DNA from: Promethearchaeia archaeon
Lineage (GTDB): Archaea > Asgardarchaeota > Lokiarchaeia > Sigyniarchaeales > SOKP01
Length of the DNA stretch: 17,311 nucleotides
Assembly: GCA_046497275.1 (NCBI GenBank)
Contig: JAWOFX010000081.1
Coordinates: forward strand, 1 to 17,311
Direction of reading: 5' to 3'
The notes under the pieces were generated by a model. It made no database searches, was not told where the DNA came from, and worked only from the letters and a program-made list of their open reading frames with translations. Every line of letters starts with the position of its first letter. Positions within the stretch are counted from its first letter, which is position 1. Shown one piece after another: positions 1,922 through 17,311 of this stretch. The translations under genes and the position numbers were made by a program.

Positions 1922-3265
1922 ATGGGAAAAATAAAAGATTTTATAAATAAGAATTTCTATGAAATTTTTAATGATTCTCACTTGATTTATACCTTAATAT
2001 TCTTTATATCTGCTTTTTTAATCGCATTACTTAGTTTATTTCCATACACTAACATAGGAAATGCAGTTCTGTTTCTCTCCACTTCAATATCACTTACATA
2101 TATTTTATTAATGTTTATAAGTCTAATACCTACCCTTGAAAAGTACCTTTTCTCTGAGGAAAAAAGATTCGGTAGATATAAAATTATTGGGTTTTTTGGA
2201 GTTTATTTAATTAGTTTTATAATAATATTAATCTATTTTATTTTTGGATCTAGTGCTAATTTAACAATAGAATTTATGGGTTGGGATATTCTCCTTCCTA
2301 CTCTATTTATTGTAGTCTTTTTTGGGTGGAATCTTTTACAAATTTTGTTCTTAAGAAGCGGTATGGAAATTTTATCAGAGAAGATTGAAAATAAAATTTT
2401 CCCAAGATCGAAATCGATTGAAACAAAAGAGACATTTTCATTGATCTTTTTAATCTTAGCGACTTTAATTGCTCCATTATTACAAATCTTTCTTATTCTT
2501 TTTTACATTCATTCTTATTCTTCCTTAGGCGGAGATTTATTTATCTGGTTTATTATTGTCAATACGTTAATTGCTTTAATTATCTCAATAACTTCTTGGA
2601 GATTGATTTCGTTATTCTTGAAAAGTAGGAAAAATAATACCTCCAATATCTTTTCTTCACTTTTTTATATATTTATTTGGCTATACATGATTTATCGGAT
2701 TTTTAGTTTTTTCAATTCGCTTCGAGGTGAAGGAAAGGTTGGTGCGAACATTTTTACCTCACTAATAGATATTCTGTTAATGGTTATCACTGCTGGTTTA
2801 GTACTTAGAAGTTTAGGAGGGAAAATTGTTGGAGCTGTAATTTTTAATAAAAATAATATGCCTTTCTTTTTATACGCGTTTACAATGCTTTATATCCAAG
2901 GACAAATCATCATGATAACAGGTGCGGGCAATTTAGTTGGAATATTTTCGAATCGAAATCAAGTGAACCTTGTGAATAATTTTATGATTTTCATAATATC
3001 TTTTGGTTTTTACCTTTGGTATTCATCCTATATGCTTCAGAGAAAAGGTTTAATTGAACGAACGCTCTTTACGAGAGAGGAAATCATTCAAATTTTATTT
3101 GATTATAGCGAATATTTAGGAAAACAAACCCCAAATGAACAAGACTTTAAAATATTTTTAGAAAATCAGGGGATAAGCTCTGAAATAATGAAAGAAAAAC
3201 ATCCTACCACTAAAGAATTAGAAAGTCAATCAGAACCGGAACCAAAAGAAGCAGATGAATTCTAA
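1922..3265 (+). CDS. Polytopic membrane protein of unknown function (about ten TM segments, acidic C-terminal tail)
   Basis: 447-aa ORF with repeated hydrophobic segments and a charged tail (ESQSEPEPKEADEF). No family motif recognised. Confidence 0.8.
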   Translation: MGKIKDFINKNFYEIFNDSHLIYTLIFFISAFLIALLSLFPYTNIGNAVLFLSTSISLTYILLMFISLIPTLEKYLFSEEKRFGRYKIIGFFGVYLISFIIILIYFIFGSSANLTIEFMGWDILLPTLFIVVFFGWNLLQILFLRSGMEILSEKIENKIFPRSKSIETKETFSLIFLILATLIAPLLQIFLILFYIHSYSSLGGDLFIWFIIVNTLIALIISITSWRLISLFLKSRKNNTSNIFSSLFYIFIWLYMIYRIFSFFNSLRGEGKVGANIFTSLIDILLMVITAGLVLRSLGGKIVGAVIFNKNNMPFFLYAFTMLYIQGQIIMITGAGNLVGIFSNRNQVNLVNNFMIFIISFGFYLWYSSYMLQRKGLIERTLFTREEIIQILFDYSEYLGKQTPNEQDFKIFLENQGISSEIMKEKHPTTKELESQSEPEPKEADEF

Positions 3266-7110: not shown

Positions 7111-8079
7111 TTAAAATTCAATGACTATATCTTCAACTTTTTTAGATTTGTTTTTTTTAGAAAGATATAGCACAATACCAATCGTTAGAATACTAATAAT
7201 CGCTCCAGAAGGAATTAAAACACTAAGATATTTATTTCCTTTTTGATTGGGATTAAATTCTGGGGAGGAGTTGACTTCTATGGTTTTATTTGAAATATAT
7301 TGAGAATATTGAATTCCAAATCTGTCTTGATAAGAATAAAAGAGTGAAACGTAAAGATTTATTGAATCACAGTTTTCTAAATTAACAATCTCACTGATAG
7401 AAATGTTTATGATTTTTGATATAGTACCAATATCAAGATATTGCGCAGATTCCCAAAGCGGTATAAGTCCCTCAAAATTAGGATCATTAAAGATCTTAAA
7501 TTGAGTAAAAATTAATTCAGGAGCATAATACTCTAATGTCCATAACGCATCTATTTGGATGGTGTCATTAGAGTAAAACACGTCTTTATTTATATTAAAG
7601 CTCTCGAATTCTAAATTCCCCTCCTTAATAATTTTAAAACTGGTAGTATTATAAAAATATTCAAGATTAGAATTTAATGGATCATATTGATGATAATATA
7701 ATGTTACATATAATTCAATTGAGCCATTGAATGTTATATTCTCCCATAGCGATTGGATTGGAATACTGACATTTTTAAATACTTCTCCTCTTTCATCAAA
7801 ACTTTCTGATTTCCATACTAAACAGTAATCTGGTAAGTTTGTGTTATTATAAATTCGAAATTGACTATAACAAGTTCCCACATAATCTTCAATTATATTC
7901 CACGACCCATTTATCTCAATCGTCTCATTAGGATAAAAATTTTCTCTATTAATATTAATATTGGTTGAATTAATTTGAAAATTTCCTTGGTCTTCTTCAT
8001 TTCCTTTAATTTCTGAGATATCTAAAAATAAAAATATCAAGCCTAGAAGAAAGAATAAACTTAGATATCTTTTTTTCAT
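7111..8079 (-). CDS. Putative cell-surface glycoprotein: signal peptide, two tandem homologous beta-rich domains, C-terminal TM anchor
   Basis: N-terminus MKKRY plus a hydrophobic stretch; internal duplication (NINRENFYPNETIEINGSW vs NINKDVFYSNDTIQIDALW); 12 N-x-S/T sequons; C-terminal hydrophobic helix followed by SKKNKSKK. Confidence 0.8.
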   Translation of the reverse strand: MKKRYLSLFFLLGLIFLFLDISEIKGNEEDQGNFQINSTNININRENFYPNETIEINGSWNIIEDYVGTCYSQFRIYNNTNLPDYCLVWKSESFDERGEVFKNVSIPIQSLWENITFNGSIELYVTLYYHQYDPLNSNLEYFYNTTSFKIIKEGNLEFESFNINKDVFYSNDTIQIDALWTLEYYAPELIFTQFKIFNDPNFEGLIPLWESAQYLDIGTISKIINISISEIVNLENCDSINLYVSLFYSYQDRFGIQYSQYISNKTIEVNSSPEFNPNQKGNKYLSVLIPSGAIISILTIGIVLYLSKKNKSKKVEDIVIEF

Positions 8080-8381: not shown

Positions 8382-9734
8382 TTAAAGTCTCTGGATATAG
8401 CGGTCACGTTCCCAATCAGAAACATTTACACGATAGGCGTCATATTCTTCTAATTTAGCATAATAATAGTTTTTAAACAAATCTTCACCGAAAATCTTTT
8501 TCATCATTTCAGATTCCTTGAATTCGGTTAAGGCGACCCTAAGACTGCCAGGAAGTGATATAATTCCCGATTTTTCTAGATCTTTAGTTGAAAAATGATA
8601 AACATTTTTATCTGTAGGGGAGGGAATCTCTATATCATCAGATAATATACCTTCCAATCCAGTGGCTAAAAGTACTGCAAATTGAAGATATGGATTTCCA
8701 GAAGGATCCGGACATCGAATTTCACATCGTGCTGAATTAGGTTTTCCATGAAAATCGGGGACTCGAATCAAGGGAGATCGATTTCTAAAACCCCAAGCCA
8801 CATACACTGGTGCCTCATAACCTGGGACTAATCGTTTATAAGAATTTGGCCAACTTGATAATACAGCACACATATCTTTTGCATATTTTAATTGTCCTGC
8901 TATCCATTTTTTCATCTCATAAGATATAAAATTTTCATCATTTTCATCATAGAAAACATTATTTCCATTTTTCCACAGACTCTGGTGAACATGCATCCCC
9001 GAACCATTTATCCCCGAAAATGGTTTTGGCATAAATGTTGCTGTCATATCGTTTTCAGCGGCCACAGTTTTAACAATAGTTTTTATAGTTATAGTATTAT
9101 CTGCTGAGTTAACTGCTTCATCATATCGAAAATCTACCTCATGTTGTCCATATGCAACTTCATGGTGTAGAGCTTCTATTTCGATACCCATTTTATCGCA
9201 GTATTGCGCGATGCGATATCTCATCATCTCATTAATATCGTAGGGATCATAATCGAAATATCCTCGAAGGTCGCTCGGCTTGAAGGGTTTTTGGGCCTCT
9301 TTGTTTAACATGAAGAACTCCATTTCTGGGGCACAATAATATTTATATCCGTGTTCTGCCGCTTTGTTAACCACCTTTTGAAGGACATATCTGGGATCTC
9401 CTTCATATCTATCCCCATCAGGTTTATAGATATCACAAATTATTCGTGCCACTTTATTTTCCTTCCTCCAAGGCAAAATATGGAAAGTACTGGGATCGGG
9501 AACAGCAACTTTATCACTTTCTTCTATTGCTCCATACCCTGTAATGCTTGATCCATCAAAATTCTCTCCCATTTCCATAAAATCTTCAATCCGTTTTGAA
9601 TTAATTTCAAAAGATTTTATAAGCCCATGGATATCTGTGAATTGAAGATATATAAATTTAATATCACATTCCTTTACGGTCTCTATAACTTTTTCACATA
9701 TCTCCTTTCGATGAGGATCCTCTTTATCAATCAT
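8382..9734 (-). CDS. glnA: Glutamine synthetase type I (GSI-alpha-like)
   Basis: Motifs FDGSSI, IEESD, PEMEFF, HHEVAYGQHE, ATFMPKPFSGINGSGMH, NSYKRLVPGYEAP, NRSPLIRVP and EIRCPDPSGNPYL; the canonical metal- and substrate-binding residues are present. Confidence 0.97.
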   Translation of the reverse strand: MIDKEDPHRKEICEKVIETVKECDIKFIYLQFTDIHGLIKSFEINSKRIEDFMEMGENFDGSSITGYGAIEESDKVAVPDPSTFHILPWRKENKVARIICDIYKPDGDRYEGDPRYVLQKVVNKAAEHGYKYYCAPEMEFFMLNKEAQKPFKPSDLRGYFDYDPYDINEMMRYRIAQYCDKMGIEIEALHHEVAYGQHEVDFRYDEAVNSADNTITIKTIVKTVAAENDMTATFMPKPFSGINGSGMHVHQSLWKNGNNVFYDENDENFISYEMKKWIAGQLKYAKDMCAVLSSWPNSYKRLVPGYEAPVYVAWGFRNRSPLIRVPDFHGKPNSARCEIRCPDPSGNPYLQFAVLLATGLEGILSDDIEIPSPTDKNVYHFSTKDLEKSGIISLPGSLRVALTEFKESEMMKKIFGEDLFKNYYYAKLEEYDAYRVNVSDWERDRYIQRL

Positions 9735-9916
9735 AATTATTTTTAATTATTTGTTTAATTTTTTAATATAATTAAGATCATTTAGTTAAACAAAATATAT
9801 AAATCTGGTCATTCATTACACCCGACAAAAAGATAAGTAAAAATTTGATCACAAAACTTAAAAATGATTAAAACAAATGATCAATAAGGAATTTGAAAAA
9901 ATGCTTAAAAATTTAT

Positions 9917-10411
9917 ATGAATGATCAAATCAAATTAGAAGATTGGGATTGGCAAATACTAAAGGAATTAAGCGAAGATGGGCGTCTTTCTTTCAGGAGT
10001 TTATCAAAAACTCTTGATAAATCTCCTGTTACTATAAAAAGGCATATTGAATATTTAGAAACTAAGGGAATAATAAAACATTATGGAATAACAATTGATT
10101 ATGAAAAGTTAGGATTGGATATTATAGCATTAATTGAATTGACCATTTCAAAAGGAAAGATGCTTGAAGTTGAAGAAGATATTGCTAAAAACCCTAATGT
10201 TTTTGGTGTCTATGATATCACAGGAGAATATGATGCGTTAATATTCGCGAGATTTAGAGCGAGGGAAGATCTAAGCAAATTAGTGAAGGATATTAATTCC
10301 TATGAATATGTGATAAGAACTAATACACATTTAATTCTAAATATCATAAAGGAAGAAAGTACTTTCTCAGATCTTTTTAAAGGTAAATTAAATAATTCAG
10401 AAAAAACATAG
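9917..10411 (+). CDS. Lrp/AsnC family transcriptional regulator, divergent from glnA
   Basis: N-terminal HTH (DWQILKELSEDGRLSFRSLSKTLDKSPVTIKRHIEYLETKGII) and RAM domain (VYDITGEYDALI). ATG 9917 is preferred over the track's TTG 9893. Confidence 0.93.
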   Translation: MNDQIKLEDWDWQILKELSEDGRLSFRSLSKTLDKSPVTIKRHIEYLETKGIIKHYGITIDYEKLGLDIIALIELTISKGKMLEVEEDIAKNPNVFGVYDITGEYDALIFARFRAREDLSKLVKDINSYEYVIRTNTHLILNIIKEESTFSDLFKGKLNNSEKT

Positions 10412-10520: not shown

Positions 10521-10829
10521 TCAATAAGATCTTAGTAATTGATCTACCCAGCCATCATAATATTCTTACTCTAAAATAATATGTGGAGCTACATCTTTAA
10601 AACCTTCTTTCTGTAAATTATCTTGAATAATTTTGGTTTCTTGAGCACTTTTAGTCCAAACTTTAAATGTAATTAAGTTAGGAATATTACTGTAGCTAAT
10701 AGAAGATAACTTTTTTGGATAATTCTCATTAAGATATTCTTGAGTGGAGGGTATATCGGTCGCCTCGTTCAATGTAAGGTTAAAAACTAATACATAATTA
10801 GGGACATAATACGGTTGCCATTACTCCAT
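10521..10829 (-). pseudogene. Probable decayed gene fragment, possibly the C-terminal effector domain of an AsnC-like regulator
   Basis: One frame reads ME*WQPYYVPNYVLVFNLTLNEATD...SYSNIPNLITFKVWTKSAQETKIIQDNLQKEGFKDVAPHIILE*EYYDGWVDQLLRSY*, with TAA at 10821-10823 and 10566-10568. The family assignment is from recollection only and was not searched. Confidence 0.45.
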
Positions 10830-11062: not shown

Positions 11063-11890
11063 TTATATTAGGTTTCCGCAAAAATTTCCTCCGAATGGTC
11101 GTTTTGATATTGGTTTTACTATTTGATATGGTTTTAGATTTATTATATCGGGATTAATCTTGAAAGTATCACAGAATTCTTTAATATAAGGCTTAATAGT
11201 TTTTTCTGTTTCTTTTTTTAAATCATACACTTTCGCACCAACTCCCAATCTGGATCCTAAATCTTCCTCCGTTCGAAGGATAATTTTTCCTCTATGTATT
11301 CCTGTACCTAATTCTTCTCCACAGATAGGATACTTACTCTCCGAAACTGTTCCATCAGATTTAAATTCTAATCCTAATACAATTATTAATCCCCCAGCCA
11401 TGTATTCTCCCAAAAAATCTTTAGCTGTTCCTCCTATTAACAATACAGGAAATTTATGCTCAAATTCTTTAATATGGATTCCTACTCGATATCCAACATC
11501 TTTTTTTACATATATTTTTCCTCCACGAGCAGATAACCCAATTACATCTCCTCCATCTCCATGAATAATTATTTTTCCATTATTCATCGTATTACCAATT
11601 TGATCTTCGCTATTGCCATTTACAATTATTTCTGGTCCATCCATAAATATCCCGAGATCATTCCCAGGAAGTCCATTGATTTCAATTTTCAATTGTCCTT
11701 GTAAAGAAGCACCTATAAATCTCTGACCACATACATTATTTAGAACGACCTTAGTATAACCTTTTTTTATTATTTGATATATTTTTTCATTTAATATTTT
11801 ATAATTTAAAGGATTTCCATTTGGAGCAGCATTTATCTCAAATTCTGCTGAATTTTCTTTTCTATATTCTATTTTTATATTTTCTATCAT
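11063..11890 (-). CDS. gltB3: Glutamate synthase GXGXG-domain subunit (archaeal split-type GltB domain 3)
   Basis: Repeated GXGXG-type beta-helix segments (GQRFIG, GNDLG, EDQIGNTMNNG, GDVIG, KDFLGEYMAGG). Start placed at ATG 11890 because GAGG lies 8 nt upstream and this removes the overlap with gltB2. Confidence 0.9.
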   Translation of the reverse strand: MIENIKIEYRKENSAEFEINAAPNGNPLNYKILNEKIYQIIKKGYTKVVLNNVCGQRFIGASLQGQLKIEINGLPGNDLGIFMDGPEIIVNGNSEDQIGNTMNNGKIIIHGDGGDVIGLSARGGKIYVKKDVGYRVGIHIKEFEHKFPVLLIGGTAKDFLGEYMAGGLIIVLGLEFKSDGTVSESKYPICGEELGTGIHRGKIILRTEEDLGSRLGVGAKVYDLKKETEKTIKPYIKEFCDTFKINPDIINLKPYQIVKPISKRPFGGNFCGNLI

Positions 11891-11906
11891 ATTTTTTTCC
11901 TCATTT

Positions 11907-13427
11907 CTATTCTCCAGCATGCTTAACACCTAATATATCCGCGATCTTTGGATTTGGACCAATATATCTTAATCGATCTCGGTTAGATCTTAGTGATTCT
12001 ACCGAATCAATACCCATCGCTCCTAACACTTCTTTTAGTTCTTCATTCCAGCTATGAAATAAATTAATAATCCGATTTCGGGCAACATCGATATCTAATC
12101 TTTTTACAAGATATTCTTGTTGAGTTGCAATCCCCCAAGAACAGAGCCCTCTAAAACATTGTTGACATACTCGACAGCCCATGGCAATTAAAACTGGCAT
12201 ACAACACATTCCAACATCAGCGCCCAACGCAATTGCTTTGATTAAGTCTGCTGAATATCTGATTGACCCTCCTGCAACTAAAGTCACCTCATCCCGAAGA
12301 TTTTCTTCTCTGAGTCGTGAATCAACTGCAGCAATCGCTAACTCTATAGGGATCCCAGCATGATCTCTAATAATTCTGGGAGCAGCTCCTGTTCCTCCTC
12401 GAAATCCATCTATTGTTAGGAAATCGGCACCACCTCTTACAATACCAACCGCAATTGGTGCTGAATTATGCACTGCGGCGATTTTAACTCCTATTGGAAC
12501 CGTATAACGTGTTGCCTCTTTTAACGCGGATATTAATTGCGCGAGATCCTCTATAGAATAGATATCATGATGAGGATATGGTGAAAGAGCATCTGATCCT
12601 TTGGGAATCATCCTCGTTTGAGAAATTAAGGAATTTACCTTCTCTCCGGGTAAATGTCCACCATGACCAGGTTTTGCTCCTTGTCCTATTTTTATCTCTA
12701 TTCCGGCAGCATTCTGTAAATAATTTATATCAACTCCAAAACGACCAGATGCAATCTCGGTTATGATATTTGGCCCATATTCATAAAAATCTTGATGAAG
12801 CCCTCCCTCTCCAGAACCTGCTAATATATTAAGCTTTTTAGCCGCTTGGTAAATTGCCATGCAAGCATTATAACTTATTGATCCTAAACTCATATGTCCA
12901 ATCATAATAGGGGAATCAATTTCAAGATTTGGCATGAATTCTGTTTTTAATGAAATATTATTGGGATCTTCAAGATCTTCAGAAAATACAATCTTTTTAG
13001 GCTTTCTTCCGAAAAATACCTTGGTTTCAATAGTTTCTCTTAATGGATCTATACTTGGATTAGTTACTTGGCATGCATCAAGAAGTAAATCATCAAAAAT
13101 ACTTCTTATTGGACGATCATTTCCTGTTGCTGAGAGTAAAACACCTCCGTTTCCAGATTGAGACCAGATGATATTCCGTATCCTCTGAGTATAGTTGCCA
13201 TGAGGTGGCAGATAGGAATCATTTTTTTCAATTCTAATTGCACCTGAGGGACACATTGCTACACATCTCTGACAAGATACACACTTTGAATCATCAGAGA
13301 CTATTTGTTCTCCATTGAATGAAAGAGCATTATAAGAACAGTGGTTGGTACAGCGTTTGCATTTCCGACAAATCTCTCTATCCACTTTAATATGAAAATA
13401 AGATGGGAAATTATGAGATAACGACAA
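11907..13427 (-). CDS. gltB2: Glutamate synthase FMN-binding subunit with N-terminal 2x[4Fe-4S] ferredoxin domain (archaeal split-type GltB domain 2)
   Basis: CRKCKRCTNHC and CVSCQRCVAMCP; EIKIGQGAKPGHGGHLPGEKV; PHHDIYSIEDLAQLI; IDGFRGGTGAAP; C-terminal Fe-S motif CRVCQQCFRGLCSWGIATQ. TTG start 7 nt after GGAGGT. Confidence 0.95.
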   Translation of the reverse strand: MSLSHNFPSYFHIKVDREICRKCKRCTNHCSYNALSFNGEQIVSDDSKCVSCQRCVAMCPSGAIRIEKNDSYLPPHGNYTQRIRNIIWSQSGNGGVLLSATGNDRPIRSIFDDLLLDACQVTNPSIDPLRETIETKVFFGRKPKKIVFSEDLEDPNNISLKTEFMPNLEIDSPIMIGHMSLGSISYNACMAIYQAAKKLNILAGSGEGGLHQDFYEYGPNIITEIASGRFGVDINYLQNAAGIEIKIGQGAKPGHGGHLPGEKVNSLISQTRMIPKGSDALSPYPHHDIYSIEDLAQLISALKEATRYTVPIGVKIAAVHNSAPIAVGIVRGGADFLTIDGFRGGTGAAPRIIRDHAGIPIELAIAAVDSRLREENLRDEVTLVAGGSIRYSADLIKAIALGADVGMCCMPVLIAMGCRVCQQCFRGLCSWGIATQQEYLVKRLDIDVARNRIINLFHSWNEELKEVLGAMGIDSVESLRSNRDRLRYIGPNPKIADILGVKHAGE

Positions 13428-13431
13428 TTTA

Positions 13432-14628
13432 TTAACCTCCTATAGTCCCCTCTACTTTTAAATTAATTTTTTCAAATGGACTTTCTCTTCCGTCTCTGAG
13501 TAATCCTTTACCCACTTGTGCAATTATCGCTGTTCCACTTTTCGGGTGCCATATTCTCTTAAAATTATAATCTTCACATAATTTTAGTCTTTTAAATGAA
13601 GCTTCTTCACTACTTAAGAACACTGAATTTTCATCATTAGAGATAGCTGCAACAAGCGGTCGTAATTTTTTTCTATCAGATAATCCTATTAATGTAGGTT
13701 TAGGATAGTTTAGTCCGACAACAATCGAAAATGGCCCATTTAACATCGCAGATCTGTAGGTAGCGCGAATATTTTTGAGAGCAATTTGATATTTTTGTTC
13801 CATGTTCTCGATAGTGGTAAAGAGAGGTGGTGCTAATGCAATAGTTGTAATAGGTATGGGTATTTTTTGTTTTCTAATTAATAAATCAAATAAATAAGCA
13901 ATAACTTCTGTATCAGTAAATAAAGTACATTTATAACCGAAAGATTCTAAATATCTCATGTTGGTCCCATAAGAAGTTATTTCTCCATTGTGAACAACAC
14001 TAGTTCCTAATAAATTAAATGGATGAGCTCCACCCCACCAACCAGGTGTATTCGTAGGAAAGCGAGAATGTGCTAACCACATATAAGCTTTATAATCTTT
14101 AATTTGATAAAAATCGGCAATTTCATGAGACCATCCATTGCCTTTAAAAACACCCATATTTTTTCCAGATGATATAACAAAAACCCCATCAAAAGTATCA
14201 TTTAGCTTCATAATCAATCTAACCATTTGGGCATCATCAGAGATACTTTCTTTATGTTTTGGTTCATAAAAAATTCTCCAAGTTATGGGGGGATTGTTAA
14301 CATTAGGTGGAATTTTGGTAGGTATAGGCTCCGATTGAATTATATTACCAAAATCACCTAGGTATCTTATTAAATTTTCTTTACTGTCTTCATCATCTAT
14401 TAGAAGATGGAGTGCATAATATTCTTTATATTTTGGATATATTCCATAACCCGCAAATCCAGCACCTAACCCATTTTCTCTTTCACTTAAAATACTCAAC
14501 ATATCAATGATTTGTTCTCCATTATCTCTTTTTTTGTCTAAATTGATATATCCTGATATGCCGCATCCATCAAATACACGTTGGTTTCTAAACTTTTCCA
14601 CTAAAGATGTATAATTATTCCATTTCAC
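13432..14628 (-). CDS. gltB1: Glutamate synthase class II (Ntn) glutamine amidotransferase subunit (archaeal split-type GltB domain 1)
   Basis: CGISG at residue 22; ERENGLGAGFAGYG; HSRFPTNT; AHPF; HNGEI; TDTEV; LNGPFS; DRKKLRP. GTG start immediately after an in-frame TAA. Confidence 0.93.
   Translation of the reverse strand: MKWNNYTSLVEKFRNQRVFDGCGISGYINLDKKRDNGEQIIDMLSILSERENGLGAGFAGYGIYPKYKEYYALHLLIDDEDSKENLIRYLGDFGNIIQSEPIPTKIPPNVNNPPITWRIFYEPKHKESISDDAQMVRLIMKLNDTFDGVFVISSGKNMGVFKGNGWSHEIADFYQIKDYKAYMWLAHSRFPTNTPGWWGGAHPFNLLGTSVVHNGEITSYGTNMRYLESFGYKCTLFTDTEVIAYLFDLLIRKQKIPIPITTIALAPPLFTTIENMEQKYQIALKNIRATYRSAMLNGPFSIVVGLNYPKPTLIGLSDRKKLRPLVAAISNDENSVFLSSEEASFKRLKLCEDYNFKRIWHPKSGTAIIAQVGKGLLRDGRESPFEKINLKVEGTIGG
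13435..13440 (-). promoter_or_regulatory. Shine-Dalgarno site GGAGGT for gltB2
   Basis: Formed by the last two codons of gltB1 (GGA GGT TAA), 7 nt before TTG 13427. Confidence 0.7.
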
Positions 14629-14652
14629 TTATTTATCCCATTTTGTTATTTT

Positions 14653-15984
14653 TTAATGCTCTCCATCAATTTTAATAATTAATCTTTTTAAATCTTGTAT
14701 TTTTGGTTTTTTGGCATTTAAACCAACTCTCTTCCTTGCTGACCTTGAAAATTTTGCAACTGTTCCCATCCTCTTAAAAGAATCAAACTCTTTTTCGAAA
14801 CCTTTAACGGTTATATCTAATTCTTTTGCTAAGTTTCTAAGAGTTGTAAAAACATCCACTAAACCTATCCTCATAGGACATAATTCATAGCAAACATAAC
14901 AGTCAAGGCATAACCAGATAGAGGGATCTCTTACAATTTTATTCAGTTGTCCCTTTAAGATCTTTCCGATTATTTCTTTCGGATTAAAGGTTTGTGGCAT
15001 ATATTTTGCGACAGGGCAATCACTATTGCACGCTCCACAAAAATAACATTCTTTCAAAAATTCTAAATCAAAGTATTTCTCTATTTCTCTATTCCTTTGG
15101 TAAATCATATCTATTTTTCTAAAAATACTCTCAACCGGCGTTCTATGATATTTAGTAATAAATTCTTTAATATCTATACCTAATGCAATACAGAGTAATT
15201 CTGAATAATAAAAAACAGGTATATCAAATTCATAGTCTAGTTTTTTAAGTTCTCTTTGTAAATGATCAAATTGGATAAAACATTGAGGGCAGCCCACTAC
15301 TATTGCATCTGCACCAACGTCTTTAATATTTTCTAATTTTGAATGAACCATTTCTAATGCGGTATCGGGATTACCAGCTCTTTCTAGACTTCCTCCACAG
15401 CATTCCATTTTTTGAATATAATCTATACTTTTTGCTCCAAGATCTTCAATTAATTCATCAAAAATATGGGGTTTCATAGGATCATCCATTTGAATTTTAT
15501 TACTAGGTCTTAAGAAATGACATCCATAATGAACTGCTATCTTTAACCCTAATAAGGGATATTTTATTTTTTGTTTTATTTTTTCCCTATGATATTTATG
15601 AAAGAATTCCACAAGATGAAAAATATCGGATTTTCCCTCACAATGATATTCAATCTTCTCTAAATAATGATTAATTTTATCCCGTAAATGATGATTTGAT
15701 TTAATTACACTTCTAATTCCCTTTAAGGTTTCAAAACATCCATTACACGGAGTTAATATATCTAGTGATATCTGTTCCGCAATTGATAAATTCCTTGCGG
15801 CTGTTATATTATAGATAAATTCATTAGAATTTTTAATTCCATTAGGTTCTGGACAACAAGAAAACTTATTTGATTCAATATATTCAATATCTAAAAATTC
15901 AAGGATATTTTTTACTGAAACTTCTATAAATGGCAATCTATAACTAATCATACAGCCAGGAAATAATATAACCTCTTTTTGAAT
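14653..15984 (-). CDS. hdrB: HdrB-HdrC fusion protein (two CCG domains plus C-terminal 2x[4Fe-4S]), heterodisulfide-reductase-like; probable ATT start
   Basis: CCG1: FPGC (upstream of the track's ATG 15951), SCCPEP, PCNGC. CCG2: HYGCH, ECCGG, GCPQC. HdrC-like: CYFCGACNSDCP and IWLCLDCYVCYELCP. The frame is open up to TAA 15985-15987. The start position is less certain than the product call. Confidence 0.9.
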   Translation of the reverse strand: MQKEVILFPGCMISYRLPFIEVSVKNILEFLDIEYIESNKFSCCPEPNGIKNSNEFIYNITAARNLSIAEQISLDILTPCNGCFETLKGIRSVIKSNHHLRDKINHYLEKIEYHCEGKSDIFHLVEFFHKYHREKIKQKIKYPLLGLKIAVHYGCHFLRPSNKIQMDDPMKPHIFDELIEDLGAKSIDYIQKMECCGGSLERAGNPDTALEMVHSKLENIKDVGADAIVVGCPQCFIQFDHLQRELKKLDYEFDIPVFYYSELLCIALGIDIKEFITKYHRTPVESIFRKIDMIYQRNREIEKYFDLEFLKECYFCGACNSDCPVAKYMPQTFNPKEIIGKILKGQLNKIVRDPSIWLCLDCYVCYELCPMRIGLVDVFTTLRNLAKELDITVKGFEKEFDSFKRMGTVAKFSRSARKRVGLNAKKPKIQDLKRLIIKIDGEH

Positions 15985-15992
15985 TTAAAATA

Positions 15993-15998
15993 ACCTCC
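15993..15998 (-). promoter_or_regulatory. Shine-Dalgarno site GGAGGT for the hdrBC gene
   Basis: mRNA reads TTGGAGGT-TATTTTAA-ATT CAA AAA, an 8-nt spacer to ATT 15984. Confidence 0.6.
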
Positions 15999-16070
15999 AA
16001 TTTTTTTTATATTTCAACTCCTAAATTTATATTTCTTAGATAAATATATCCAAATAAAAATATAAACTTT

Positions 16071-16097: not shown

Positions 16098-16586
16098 TTA
16101 AGTATACATTAATAAATCATAAAATATGAGATAGTTATATTAGTTATATTTTTGGAAGTGGTATTTTAATTTACAAATAAATGTCAATTTTTGAATGGAT
16201 TGGATTGAGTTATATAATGATTTGGATCAACTTTAATGCATTATATATCTTCTTAAAGAAATATTGATATGAAGTGTTAAATTAATCTATCAAATTTAAG
16301 ATAATAATTTTTTAAAATCTTTCTGACAACAAGCTTGATAGTTTCAATGAAATTGAAATTATCTTTTTTTTATTTCTATCAAATCCTTAAATGAATAGGG
16401 GGAATAAATTTTTAAAAATTTGAAATTTGCTTCAATTCTTTAAAAAAAAGTAAACTTTGAGATCTTATTATGATAAGATATTAAACTAACTAATTTTAAT
16501 CTAAAATCCCTCATTCTTTTTTTGAATCATAAGTATTTATAAATTTAGAGATTGATTATTGATTATAAAAATTATATGTGATATTT

Positions 16587-17311
16587 TTGACTCAAAATAG
16601 TAATATAAATGATTACACTGAGTTTGATAAAACTCAACTTTATGAGGATCTTCGAGTGTTTTTAAGCCCTGAAAATAGTTTAAAGCTGCCAAAAAGTGAA
16701 ACCACATCGAAACTATTAACTAACATGTATACACCTACTGAAGCTTTTATTATCGTGAAAGGATTTAAAAAGCCTTTAGGACCAACATTAGGTTGGAGGA
16801 TTAGGAGAAAAACAAAAATTCCTAAAGAGAAATTAAAAGAAATTTTGGACGATATGATTTATAAGGGAAAACTGATTAAAAAGGGGCCATTTTATGTTAT
16901 TTTCCCCTATATACCTGGAGGATTTGAATTTTATTTTACAACAAATAGAGATGATCCCGAAAGAATGAAAAAAGCCGCAGAAGCTCATGATGCATTATTT
17001 TATGAAGGGTATCCCTTAGGTTTGAGCAAATTGGAGCCAACTGTATATAGAGTTATTCCAACCATAGAACCTACCAAGAGAACTTATGAAATTAATAAAT
17101 CTATGGAAATACAACATGAGATCCTTACTTATGAGCTCATGGAAGATTATTTGGCGGAAAAAGATGTATTTGCTGTCGTACCTTGTAGTTGTAGAACTGC
17201 TGCAGCTTTAGCGGGGAATCCATGTAAGAGAACTGACGAAAACTTTTGTATAACTGCAGGAGCTTTAGCTGAGAATGCTATTGAATCTGGGGTTGGAAGA
17301 GAAGTCTCATT
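16587..17311 (+). CDS. Fe-S ('4Fe-4S binding protein')-family protein, N-terminal part, truncated by the window edge
   Basis: Not in the ORF track because it has no stop in the window. Open frame from TTG 16587 (or GTG 16578): ...LYEDLRVFL...YTPTEAFII...LDDMIYKG...PYIPGGFEFYF...YRVIP...VPCSCR...GNPCKRTDENFCI...GVGREVS. This layout usually precedes a C-terminal ferredoxin domain, which is not visible here. Confidence 0.75.
   Translation, partial: MTQNSNINDYTEFDKTQLYEDLRVFLSPENSLKLPKSETTSKLLTNMYTPTEAFIIVKGFKKPLGPTLGWRIRRKTKIPKEKLKEILDDMIYKGKLIKKGPFYVIFPYIPGGFEFYFTTNRDDPERMKKAAEAHDALFYEGYPLGLSKLEPTVYRVIPTIEPTKRTYEINKSMEIQHEILTYELMEDYLAEKDVFAVVPCSCRTAAALAGNPCKRTDENFCITAGALAENAIESGVGREVS

Follow-up and report, generated by a model that had tools for sequence, protein, structure and literature searches.

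A conserved HdrB-HdrC fusion as the candidate electron-input subunit of a split archaeal-type glutamate synthase

To our knowledge, it has never been settled which electron donor the split glutamate synthase (GOGAT) of archaeal type uses physiologically. A 17,311-nt contig of a Promethearchaeia archaeon (JAWOFX010000081.1, assembly GCA_046497275.1; hereafter the window) poses this question in a concrete form. On its minus strand, at positions 11063-15984, Pfam and NCBIfam identify four co-oriented genes encoding a fusion of HdrB- and HdrC-like proteins, GltB1, GltB2 and GltB3. What is an HdrBC protein doing in front of a glutamate synthase? An original prediction, made from the DNA sequence alone, had listed the genes in the order fusion, glutamine amidotransferase, ferredoxin plus flavin mononucleotide (FMN) protein and GXGXG protein, with gaps of 24, 4 and 16 nt, and had assigned HdrBC to the electron-donor slot. 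Every detail of this layout was borne out by the domain matches and by the sequence itself, the 16-nt gap on the assumption that GltB3 starts at ATG 11890. We propose, with moderate confidence, that the four genes encode one GltD-less split archaeal-type glutamate synthase in which the HdrBC fusion would be the dedicated, dithiol-fed electron-input subunit.

The fusion, its GltB partners and its start codon

The best NCBIfam matches of the fusion are to HdrB (TIGR03288, residues 3-280) and then to HdrC (TIGR03290, residues 300-422), and TfrB is also among the matches. Two CCG domains in the HdrB half each contain five cysteines in the pattern C-X31-39-CC-X35-36-C-XX-C, for non-cubane [4Fe-4S] clusters (C11/C43/C44/C80/C83 and C155/C195/C196/C232/C235). 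The HdrC half adds two CX2CX2CX3C motifs (C313/C316/C319/C323 and C359/C362/C365/C369). All 18 cluster ligands are intact and invariant across 35 orthologues from Asgard archaea, Bathyarchaeota and bacteria. Neither a flavin site nor a nucleotide site is present in the fusion, leaving the CCG pair as its sole substrate-type site; in characterized HdrB (PDB 5ODC family), the CCG site interconverts thiols and disulfides. The closest solved structures by sequence in the PDB are 8rvu_b for the HdrB half (3.4e-63) and 5odc_C for the HdrC half (1.4e-15). Relatives of the whole protein are overwhelmingly encoded by Lokiarchaeia/Promethearchaeota metagenome-assembled genomes (MAGs), and its nearest paralogues within the genome are separate hdrC-then-hdrB pairs with ~38% identity.

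The three genes behind the fusion carry, side by side, the N-terminal nucleophile (Ntn) amidotransferase, FMN synthase and GXGXG domains that define a split archaeal glutamate synthase. In GltB1, the nucleophile Cys22 is invariant in 46 related loci. The 21-residue propeptide ahead of it is also conserved in sequence (M-x-W-x-N-Y-T ... F-R-N-x-R-V-F-D-G), unusually strongly for a stretch that Ntn amidotransferases have to remove by cleavage. In the 35 orthologues, GltB2 has eight invariant cysteines in its ferredoxin domain (C20, C23, C26, C30, C49, C52, C55 and C59) and an invariant four-cysteine motif near the FMN (C418, C421, C424 and C429). We know of no solved structure of a split GOGAT; the closest PDB sequence matches of GltB2 are the large chains of bacterial GltB (7mfm_G, 1.7e-57). 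For GltB3, a GAGG lies 8 nt before ATG 11890, and in the longer GTG frame the alignment of orthologues begins only at residue 22-34, suggesting that this ATG is probably the start.

The start of the fusion gene is unusual. Between an in-frame stop at 15985-15987 and the invariant F-P-G-C that contains the first cluster ligand, the window has no ATG, GTG or TTG. Such a lack was seen in 13 of the 36 loci examined, the window counted (near-cognate-start loci include the window, L029, L030, L035, L036, L040, L041, L047, L060, L061, L067 and L003). At the aligned position, ATT-CAG-CAA is conserved in most Loki-type loci and in three loci the codon is ATA; a canonical start, where present, lies 0-2 codons upstream of the aligned ATT. 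In the window, GGAGGT occurs 8 nt ahead of the ATT. The fusion gene therefore appears to start at a conserved near-cognate ATT or ATA codon, giving a probable protein of 443 aa from ATT 15984 as opposed to 432 aa from ATG 15951. The full set of CCG cysteines requires the ATT start, since the first of them is encoded upstream of that ATG; the end coordinate of 15984 given in the original prediction is thus correct. Because no canonical start precedes ATG 15951, gene callers truncate the fusion to 432 aa and delete one cluster ligand. Expression constructs consequently need to begin at the ATT position.

Conservation of the linkage and exchange of the upstream module

Uniqueness of the adjacency to this one genome would have spoken against a functional link, and a neighborhood survey had been suggested. 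We scanned one genome per GTDB species and obtained 79 loci, 50 with the fusion (L026-L075) and 29 with separate hdrC and hdrB. Directly after the fusion, gltB1, gltB2 and gltB3 follow in every fusion locus with enough downstream contig (~45 of 50); no gltB occurs in any of the 29 canonical separate loci. The linked loci belong to Promethearchaeota, to MAGs labelled Thor-, Hermod-, Hod- and Odinarchaeota, to Sigynarchaeum and to one Bathyarchaeota MAG, and outside the archaea to an uncultured bacterium, a Bacillota MAG and a Thermoleophilia MAG. The full order from fusion through GATase and Fer4/FMN to GXGXG recurs, amid genes that are otherwise unrelated, in three relatives with identities of 68%, 53% and 41%, the most distant of which is labelled Sigynarchaeota.

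The association also holds in the opposite direction. Among 151 sampled Asgard genomes, 17 have a gltB2 orthologue (identity of 52% or more, ferredoxin domain included). Of these 17, 12 carry the fusion in adjacent position on the same contig, and in two others both genes are present on short or fragmented contigs where a link would not be visible. It could be argued that the adjacency reflects mere shared regulation or chance, with the fusion serving an unrelated thiol/disulfide pathway, given that subunit binding is only inferred. We consider this very unlikely: the association is found from fusion to gltB as well as from gltB2 to fusion, and the gene order is the same, with spacings of 0-130 nt, in ~45 species-level genomes of both domains whose flanking genes differ completely.

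Trees of HdrBC and GltB2, proposed earlier as a test of the pairing, were built from the same 35 loci. They have 19 of 32 splits in common, compared to 0.2 with shuffled labels, and their patristic distances correlate at r = 0.89. This agreement fits a unit that is inherited and transferred together, with the caveat that vertical co-inheritance alone would give much of it. The gene neighborhoods support the view that the HdrBC fusion is a conserved partner dedicated to the split GltB genes.

Two loci in the survey call for comment. The MAG 'Promethearchaeota archaeon TEKIR_8', one contig of which is 99% identical to the window, carries the complete operon twice, each copy on a short contig of its own (L026 and L027), with fusions 99% and 76% identical to that of the window; two related populations seem to have been binned together here. 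A 1749-aa frame that seems to span all four genes in the Thermoleophilia locus (L075) was rejected: the matches jump frames, so the true genes carry frameshifts due to assembly errors, and the long open frame is an artefact of high GC content.

If HdrBC occupies the donor slot, the usual occupants should be missing from it. The window's genome is a Lokiarchaeia-type Asgard MAG of 3.85 Mb and 98.9% completeness with a single gltB2. A GltD-like gene elsewhere in it would have offered another route, and we found no GltD-type Fer4_20 domain (PF14691) in this 98.9%-complete genome. Its eight FrhB-like genes all lie on contigs other than the window's. Neither does any fusion locus contain GltD or an adjacent FrhB, in line with the anti-correlation that had been anticipated; FrhB-like genes appear in two related fusion loci, 5-7 kb away and non-adjacent. 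The original prediction had also noted the absence of HdrA and GltD from the operon, and this extends to the whole window, where no HdrA/MvhD homologue was found, and to every fusion locus.

The absence of HdrA bears on a further alternative, in which the fusion docks GOGAT to an HdrA-type bifurcating flavoprotein encoded elsewhere and iminoglutarate reduction replaces heterodisulfide reduction as the high-potential branch. Wiring of this kind does exist. In two other Asgard genomes, clusters L108 (G047:C241) and L109 (G007:C25) run hdrA::mvhD (1002 aa), hdrC, hdrB, an frhB-like gene, a GXGXG gene (gltB3) and a Fer4/Glu_synthase gene (gltB2), and apparently wire a bifurcating Hdr to an FMN module of the GltB2/3 type. 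These HdrA-linked clusters, however, have no amidotransferase gene, and their HdrC and HdrB are separate and in the opposite order. Moreover, an HdrA/MvhD homologue was found within 10 kb in none of the fusion loci, compared to at least 10 canonical hdrCB loci that have one. We therefore regard docking to HdrA as improbable.

The strongest argument for an input role comes from what replaces the fusion. In the Asgard genome G031, and in a second copy of the operon in the Asgard genome G020, gltB1 is directly preceded by a gene for a Pyr_redox_2/Rubredoxin_C flavoprotein of 453-461 aa that best matches the N-terminal type of the NADH-dependent PadH/NirB. In these loci glnA precedes the flavoprotein and a small ferredoxin follows gltB3. 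G020 carries both versions, 25 kb apart. Because the slot upstream of gltB1 holds either an NADH-type flavoprotein or the HdrBC fusion, the fusion is likely to be an electron-input module as well. On genomic grounds, a role of HdrBC as the electron-input subunit of the window's GOGAT is well supported.

Electron source, entry point and direction of flow

In the mechanism we propose, the pair of non-cubane [4Fe-4S] clusters in the HdrB half would oxidize a dithiol, and the electrons would travel by way of two [4Fe-4S] clusters in the HdrC half to two more in the GltB2 ferredoxin domain, and from there via the four-cysteine cluster beside the FMN to the FMN. GltB1 would free ammonia from glutamine, which with 2-oxoglutarate would yield 2-iminoglutarate, and this would be reduced to glutamate at the FMN. 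With the nearby glnA, the result would be a glutamine synthetase (GS)-GOGAT cycle. The original prediction had drawn the same wire and put HdrBC at its head. What stands is the wire's complete set of invariant ligands and the donor slot itself, given the conserved partnership and the NADH-type flavoprotein in the same position elsewhere. Physical association, the thiol pair as donor and the direction of flow are parts that we infer. Complex prediction for the fusion with GltB2 gave a score of 0.00 in both runs and was counted neither for nor against binding.

Which dithiol might serve? In two Bacillota-type loci (L005 and L073), the fusion lies directly beside dihydrolipoyl dehydrogenase (Lpd; TIGR01350, 577 and 568 bits, cut-off 408.8), and in one of them lipoyl synthase (LipA; TIGR00510, 395 bits, cut-off 310) adjoins the fusion too. 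A Clostridia contig reads glnA-gltB3-lpd-lipA-fusion up to the contig end, with the cluster behind an ANTAR regulator and glnA. This adjacency hints at a lipoyl dithiol. In the window's archaeon, the candidates are a protein-bound dihydrolipoyl group or the thiol pair of the many Hdr paralogues of Lokiarchaeia. Elsewhere, its genome encodes one Lpd-like and three GcvH-like proteins, the latter at C109, C118 and C69, of which one belongs to a gcvT-H-P operon, one is fused to a DGC domain and one is an orphan; we regard the last two as spare lipoyl carriers. The DGC (PF08859)-GcvH fusion (291 aa; L111, G000:C118:70757-74116) has two further DGC-domain proteins and a small ferredoxin as its neighbors, and the orphan lies beside a NAD kinase gene (L112).

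Several points weigh against the proposal. The fusion falls below the HdrB equivalog cut-off (TIGR03288, 257.8 bits versus 345.15; NF041780, 145 versus 450) and, though both HdrC motifs are present, below that for HdrC (TIGR03290, 76.4 bits versus 160). With these scores, it may act on something other than a heterodisulfide-type thiol pair, and by family membership we class it as an Hdr-like protein, not as a heterodisulfide reductase. No thiol carrier, Lpd or lipoylation gene was found in the window's Asgard operon by Pfam scans of the window. GcvH, considered as a discriminating marker for the lipoyl idea, is uninformative, being present in 147 of the 151 Asgard genomes. The operon is patchy, reaching only the 17 of 151 sampled genomes described above. 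In the window's own family within Lokiarchaeia, gltB2 occurs in 10 of 29 sampled genomes, and in 8 of these 10 it is an orthologue. In one sister Lokiarchaeia genome (G077, 100% complete), just a 69-residue C-terminal relic of the fusion precedes intact gltB1-3, so that GOGAT may function without the fusion, or this operon may be decaying. The relic occupies positions 9145-9351 of its locus (L105, G077:C81), and the rest of the gene is replaced by ~1 kb without similarity. The GltB2 ferredoxin domain could also take electrons directly from soluble ferredoxin.

Some of these observations suit a different division of labor, in which the fusion is a GltB subunit and the CCG site is not the point of entry. 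Reduced ferredoxin, or a different Fe-S protein, would then deliver electrons to the ferredoxin clusters of HdrC or GltB2, and the HdrB half would be a sensor of thiol redox state, a regulator or an additional outlet. The 2x[4Fe-4S] ferredoxin domain that GltB2 has of its own, the retention of gltB1-3 in G077 after loss of most of hdrBC and the missing thiol carrier in the Asgard operon all agree with this. Yet the ten CCG cysteines are invariant from Asgard archaea and Bathyarchaeota to bacteria, the slot is otherwise taken by an NADH-oxidizing input flavoprotein, and Lpd and LipA stand beside the fusion in Bacillota. Overall, we judge entry by way of ferredoxin rather unlikely, and continue with the CCG pair as the candidate site of dithiol oxidation.

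The direction of flow can be questioned as well. Glutamate might be oxidized at the FMN and a disulfide reduced at HdrB, making the complex a catabolic outlet in an amino-acid-fermenting archaeon. The midpoint potentials of the 2-oxoglutarate plus NH3/glutamate couple and of CoM-S-S-CoB are similar, and many Hdr paralogues occur in Lokiarchaeia-type genomes, the window's own having 43 CCG-domain matches in ~24 reading frames. This large Hdr-like family resides in a genome that had been presumed non-methanogenic, and indeed mcrA was not found in the 98.9%-complete assembly. We favor the assimilatory direction because the amidotransferase, with its invariant nucleophile, is always present, because linkage to glnA is frequent (GlnA with at least 63% identity in 16 related loci) and because nitrogen-type regulators are near, Lrp/AsnC here and ANTAR in Clostridia. 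The module that alternates with the fusion, an NADH-type input flavoprotein in a glnA-led cluster, also argues against a reverse run, which we think has a slim chance of being correct.

Surroundings of the operon and comparison with known systems

The features of the operon and its surroundings are collected in Table 1. The window has a G+C content of ~30%. As the internal gaps of the operon are so short, the candidate BRE/TATA element (archaeal transcription factor B recognition element and TATA box) marks the sole room for a promoter, and this single element, together with the spacing, suggests that the four genes may be co-transcribed. No known riboswitch or leader emerged from an Rfam scan of the entire window (E <= 0.1, no match). 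The glnA gene, placed about 1.3 kb downstream by the original prediction, was found 1.33 kb from the operon, with the Lrp/AsnC gene in between.

Table 1. Features of the operon and its flanks, in positions of the window
Feature	Position	Strand	Evidence or remark
HdrB-then-HdrC fusion	14653..15984	-	PF02754 1.6e-26; two CCG domains, then 4Fe-4S dicluster domain
Near-cognate start ATT (probable)	15982..15984	-	after in-frame TAA 15985-15987; 8 nt behind GGAGGT 15993-15998
GltB1, class-II (Ntn) glutamine amidotransferase subunit	13432..14628	-	GATase_2 4.4e-10
GltB2, Fer4 dicluster (2x[4Fe-4S]) plus FMN/synthase domain	11907..13427	-	Glu_synthase PF01645, 8.8e-126
GltB3, GXGXG beta-helix subunit	11063..11890 (longest frame to GTG 11929)	-	GXGXG 3.6e-29
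Candidate archaeal BRE/TATA element AAAGTTTATATTTTTA	16055..16070	-	~75 nt upstream of start; tentative reading of the sequence
Lrp/AsnC-family regulator, divergent, between gltB3 and glnA	9893..10411	+	Pfam/NCBIfam
glnA, type I glutamine synthetase	8382..9734	-	TIGR00653 497.8 bits versus cut-off 429

Two further candidates were discarded. A GGGA-N-TCCC inverted repeat upstream of the operon was considered as a shared nitrogen operator; it has no counterpart ahead of glnA, and its pattern occurs no more often than chance would give. A 68-aa open reading frame (ORF) downstream of gltB3 (10566-10772, minus strand), considered as a small carrier, has no Pfam match, is conserved only in the near-identical MAG and was taken to be spurious. 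Four sizeable ORFs of the window have no Pfam match: 1922-3265 (+, 447 aa), 7111-8079 (-, 322 aa), 16578-17309 (+, at least 244 aa) and 397-942 (+, 181 aa), the first three not even at E <= 1. A 438-aa ORF, likewise without a Pfam match, occupies the same place beside the ABC-transporter genes in another locus (L001); the likeness is one of position.

The fusion offers a concrete, testable candidate for the donor subunit of split GOGAT, conserved in both prokaryotic domains, and a handle on the role of the abundant Hdr-like proteins of Asgard archaea that live without methanogenesis. Should its CCG site oxidize a dithiol, dithiols would join NAD(P)H, ferredoxin and the proposed F420 as a further class of GOGAT donor, and HdrBC-type modules would have a biosynthetic role beyond energy metabolism. 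Our analysis of the window adds the two-way association test in Asgard genomes, the NADH-flavoprotein slot swap, the decayed copy and the start-codon finding. A joint reading of all these elements is a tentative one: a fifth class of glutamate synthase, dithiol-dependent, with HdrA-independent HdrB-HdrC input, linked to the thiol/disulfide pool in Asgard archaea, fed through NADH, Lpd and a lipoyl group in Bacillota, and initiated at AUU or AUA. If true, ammonium assimilation in Asgard archaea would be tied to a thiol/disulfide pool turned over by many Hdr paralogues, the Bacillota enzyme would receive electrons from NADH via Lpd and a lipoyl protein, and the unusual initiation would possibly hold the subunit at a set low level.

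How does the system compare with those already known? The heterodisulfide reductase of methanogens, HdrABC-MvhAGD/Fdh (PDB 5ODC, 7BKB, 8RVU, 9SFI), has in common with the fusion the CCG pattern and the HdrC-type double CX2CX2CX3C. In the window, by contrast, a single polypeptide runs from B to C, whereas paralogues in the same genome are separate and run from C to B; there is no HdrA/MvhD partner, scores stay below the cut-offs, mcrA is missing from the genome and the constant neighbors are gltB1-3. Thiol:fumarate reductase, with its TfrB subunit, is a precedent for a CCG site working in the thiol-oxidizing direction, and the sHdr system of sulfur oxidizers is one for Hdr-like complexes served by lipoate-binding proteins. 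The acceptor module in the window differs from both in being a glutamate synthase. Unlike the sHdr/LbpA type, the Asgard operon includes no lipoyl carrier, and adjacency to Lpd and LipA is confined to the Bacillota relatives.

Among glutamate synthases, the bacterial NADPH-dependent GltBD and the ferredoxin-dependent enzymes (PDB 1EA0, 2VDC, 6S6S, 7MFM, 1LLW) have a homologous FMN/synthase domain (1.7e-57 to 4e-53) and the same Ntn amidotransferase and GXGXG domains. The window's enzyme differs in that its large subunit is split into three genes, GltD is missing, and GltB2 has an extra 2x[4Fe-4S] ferredoxin domain and four, not three, cysteines at the cluster near the FMN. Closer still is the archaeal split GOGAT with an FrhB-like fourth subunit, represented by MTH193 'subunit 4' (PMC3087415) and by the FGltS groups (PMC9012536), which is putatively F420-dependent and still unproven. 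It has the same three GltB pieces plus an interchangeable fourth subunit for electron input, as in the window; there, however, the fourth subunit is HdrBC-like and has no flavin or F420 site, and the FrhB-like genes are on other contigs. We found no description of an HdrBC-linked glutamate synthase in the literature, an absence that is not proof, as most subscription journals lay outside our coverage. The fourth subunits described in what we found are GltD and, unproven, the FrhB-like protein (PMC3087415, PMC9012536); where Hdr appeared in that literature, the context was an unrelated one. Overall, the comparison points to a known enzyme equipped with an undescribed donor module.

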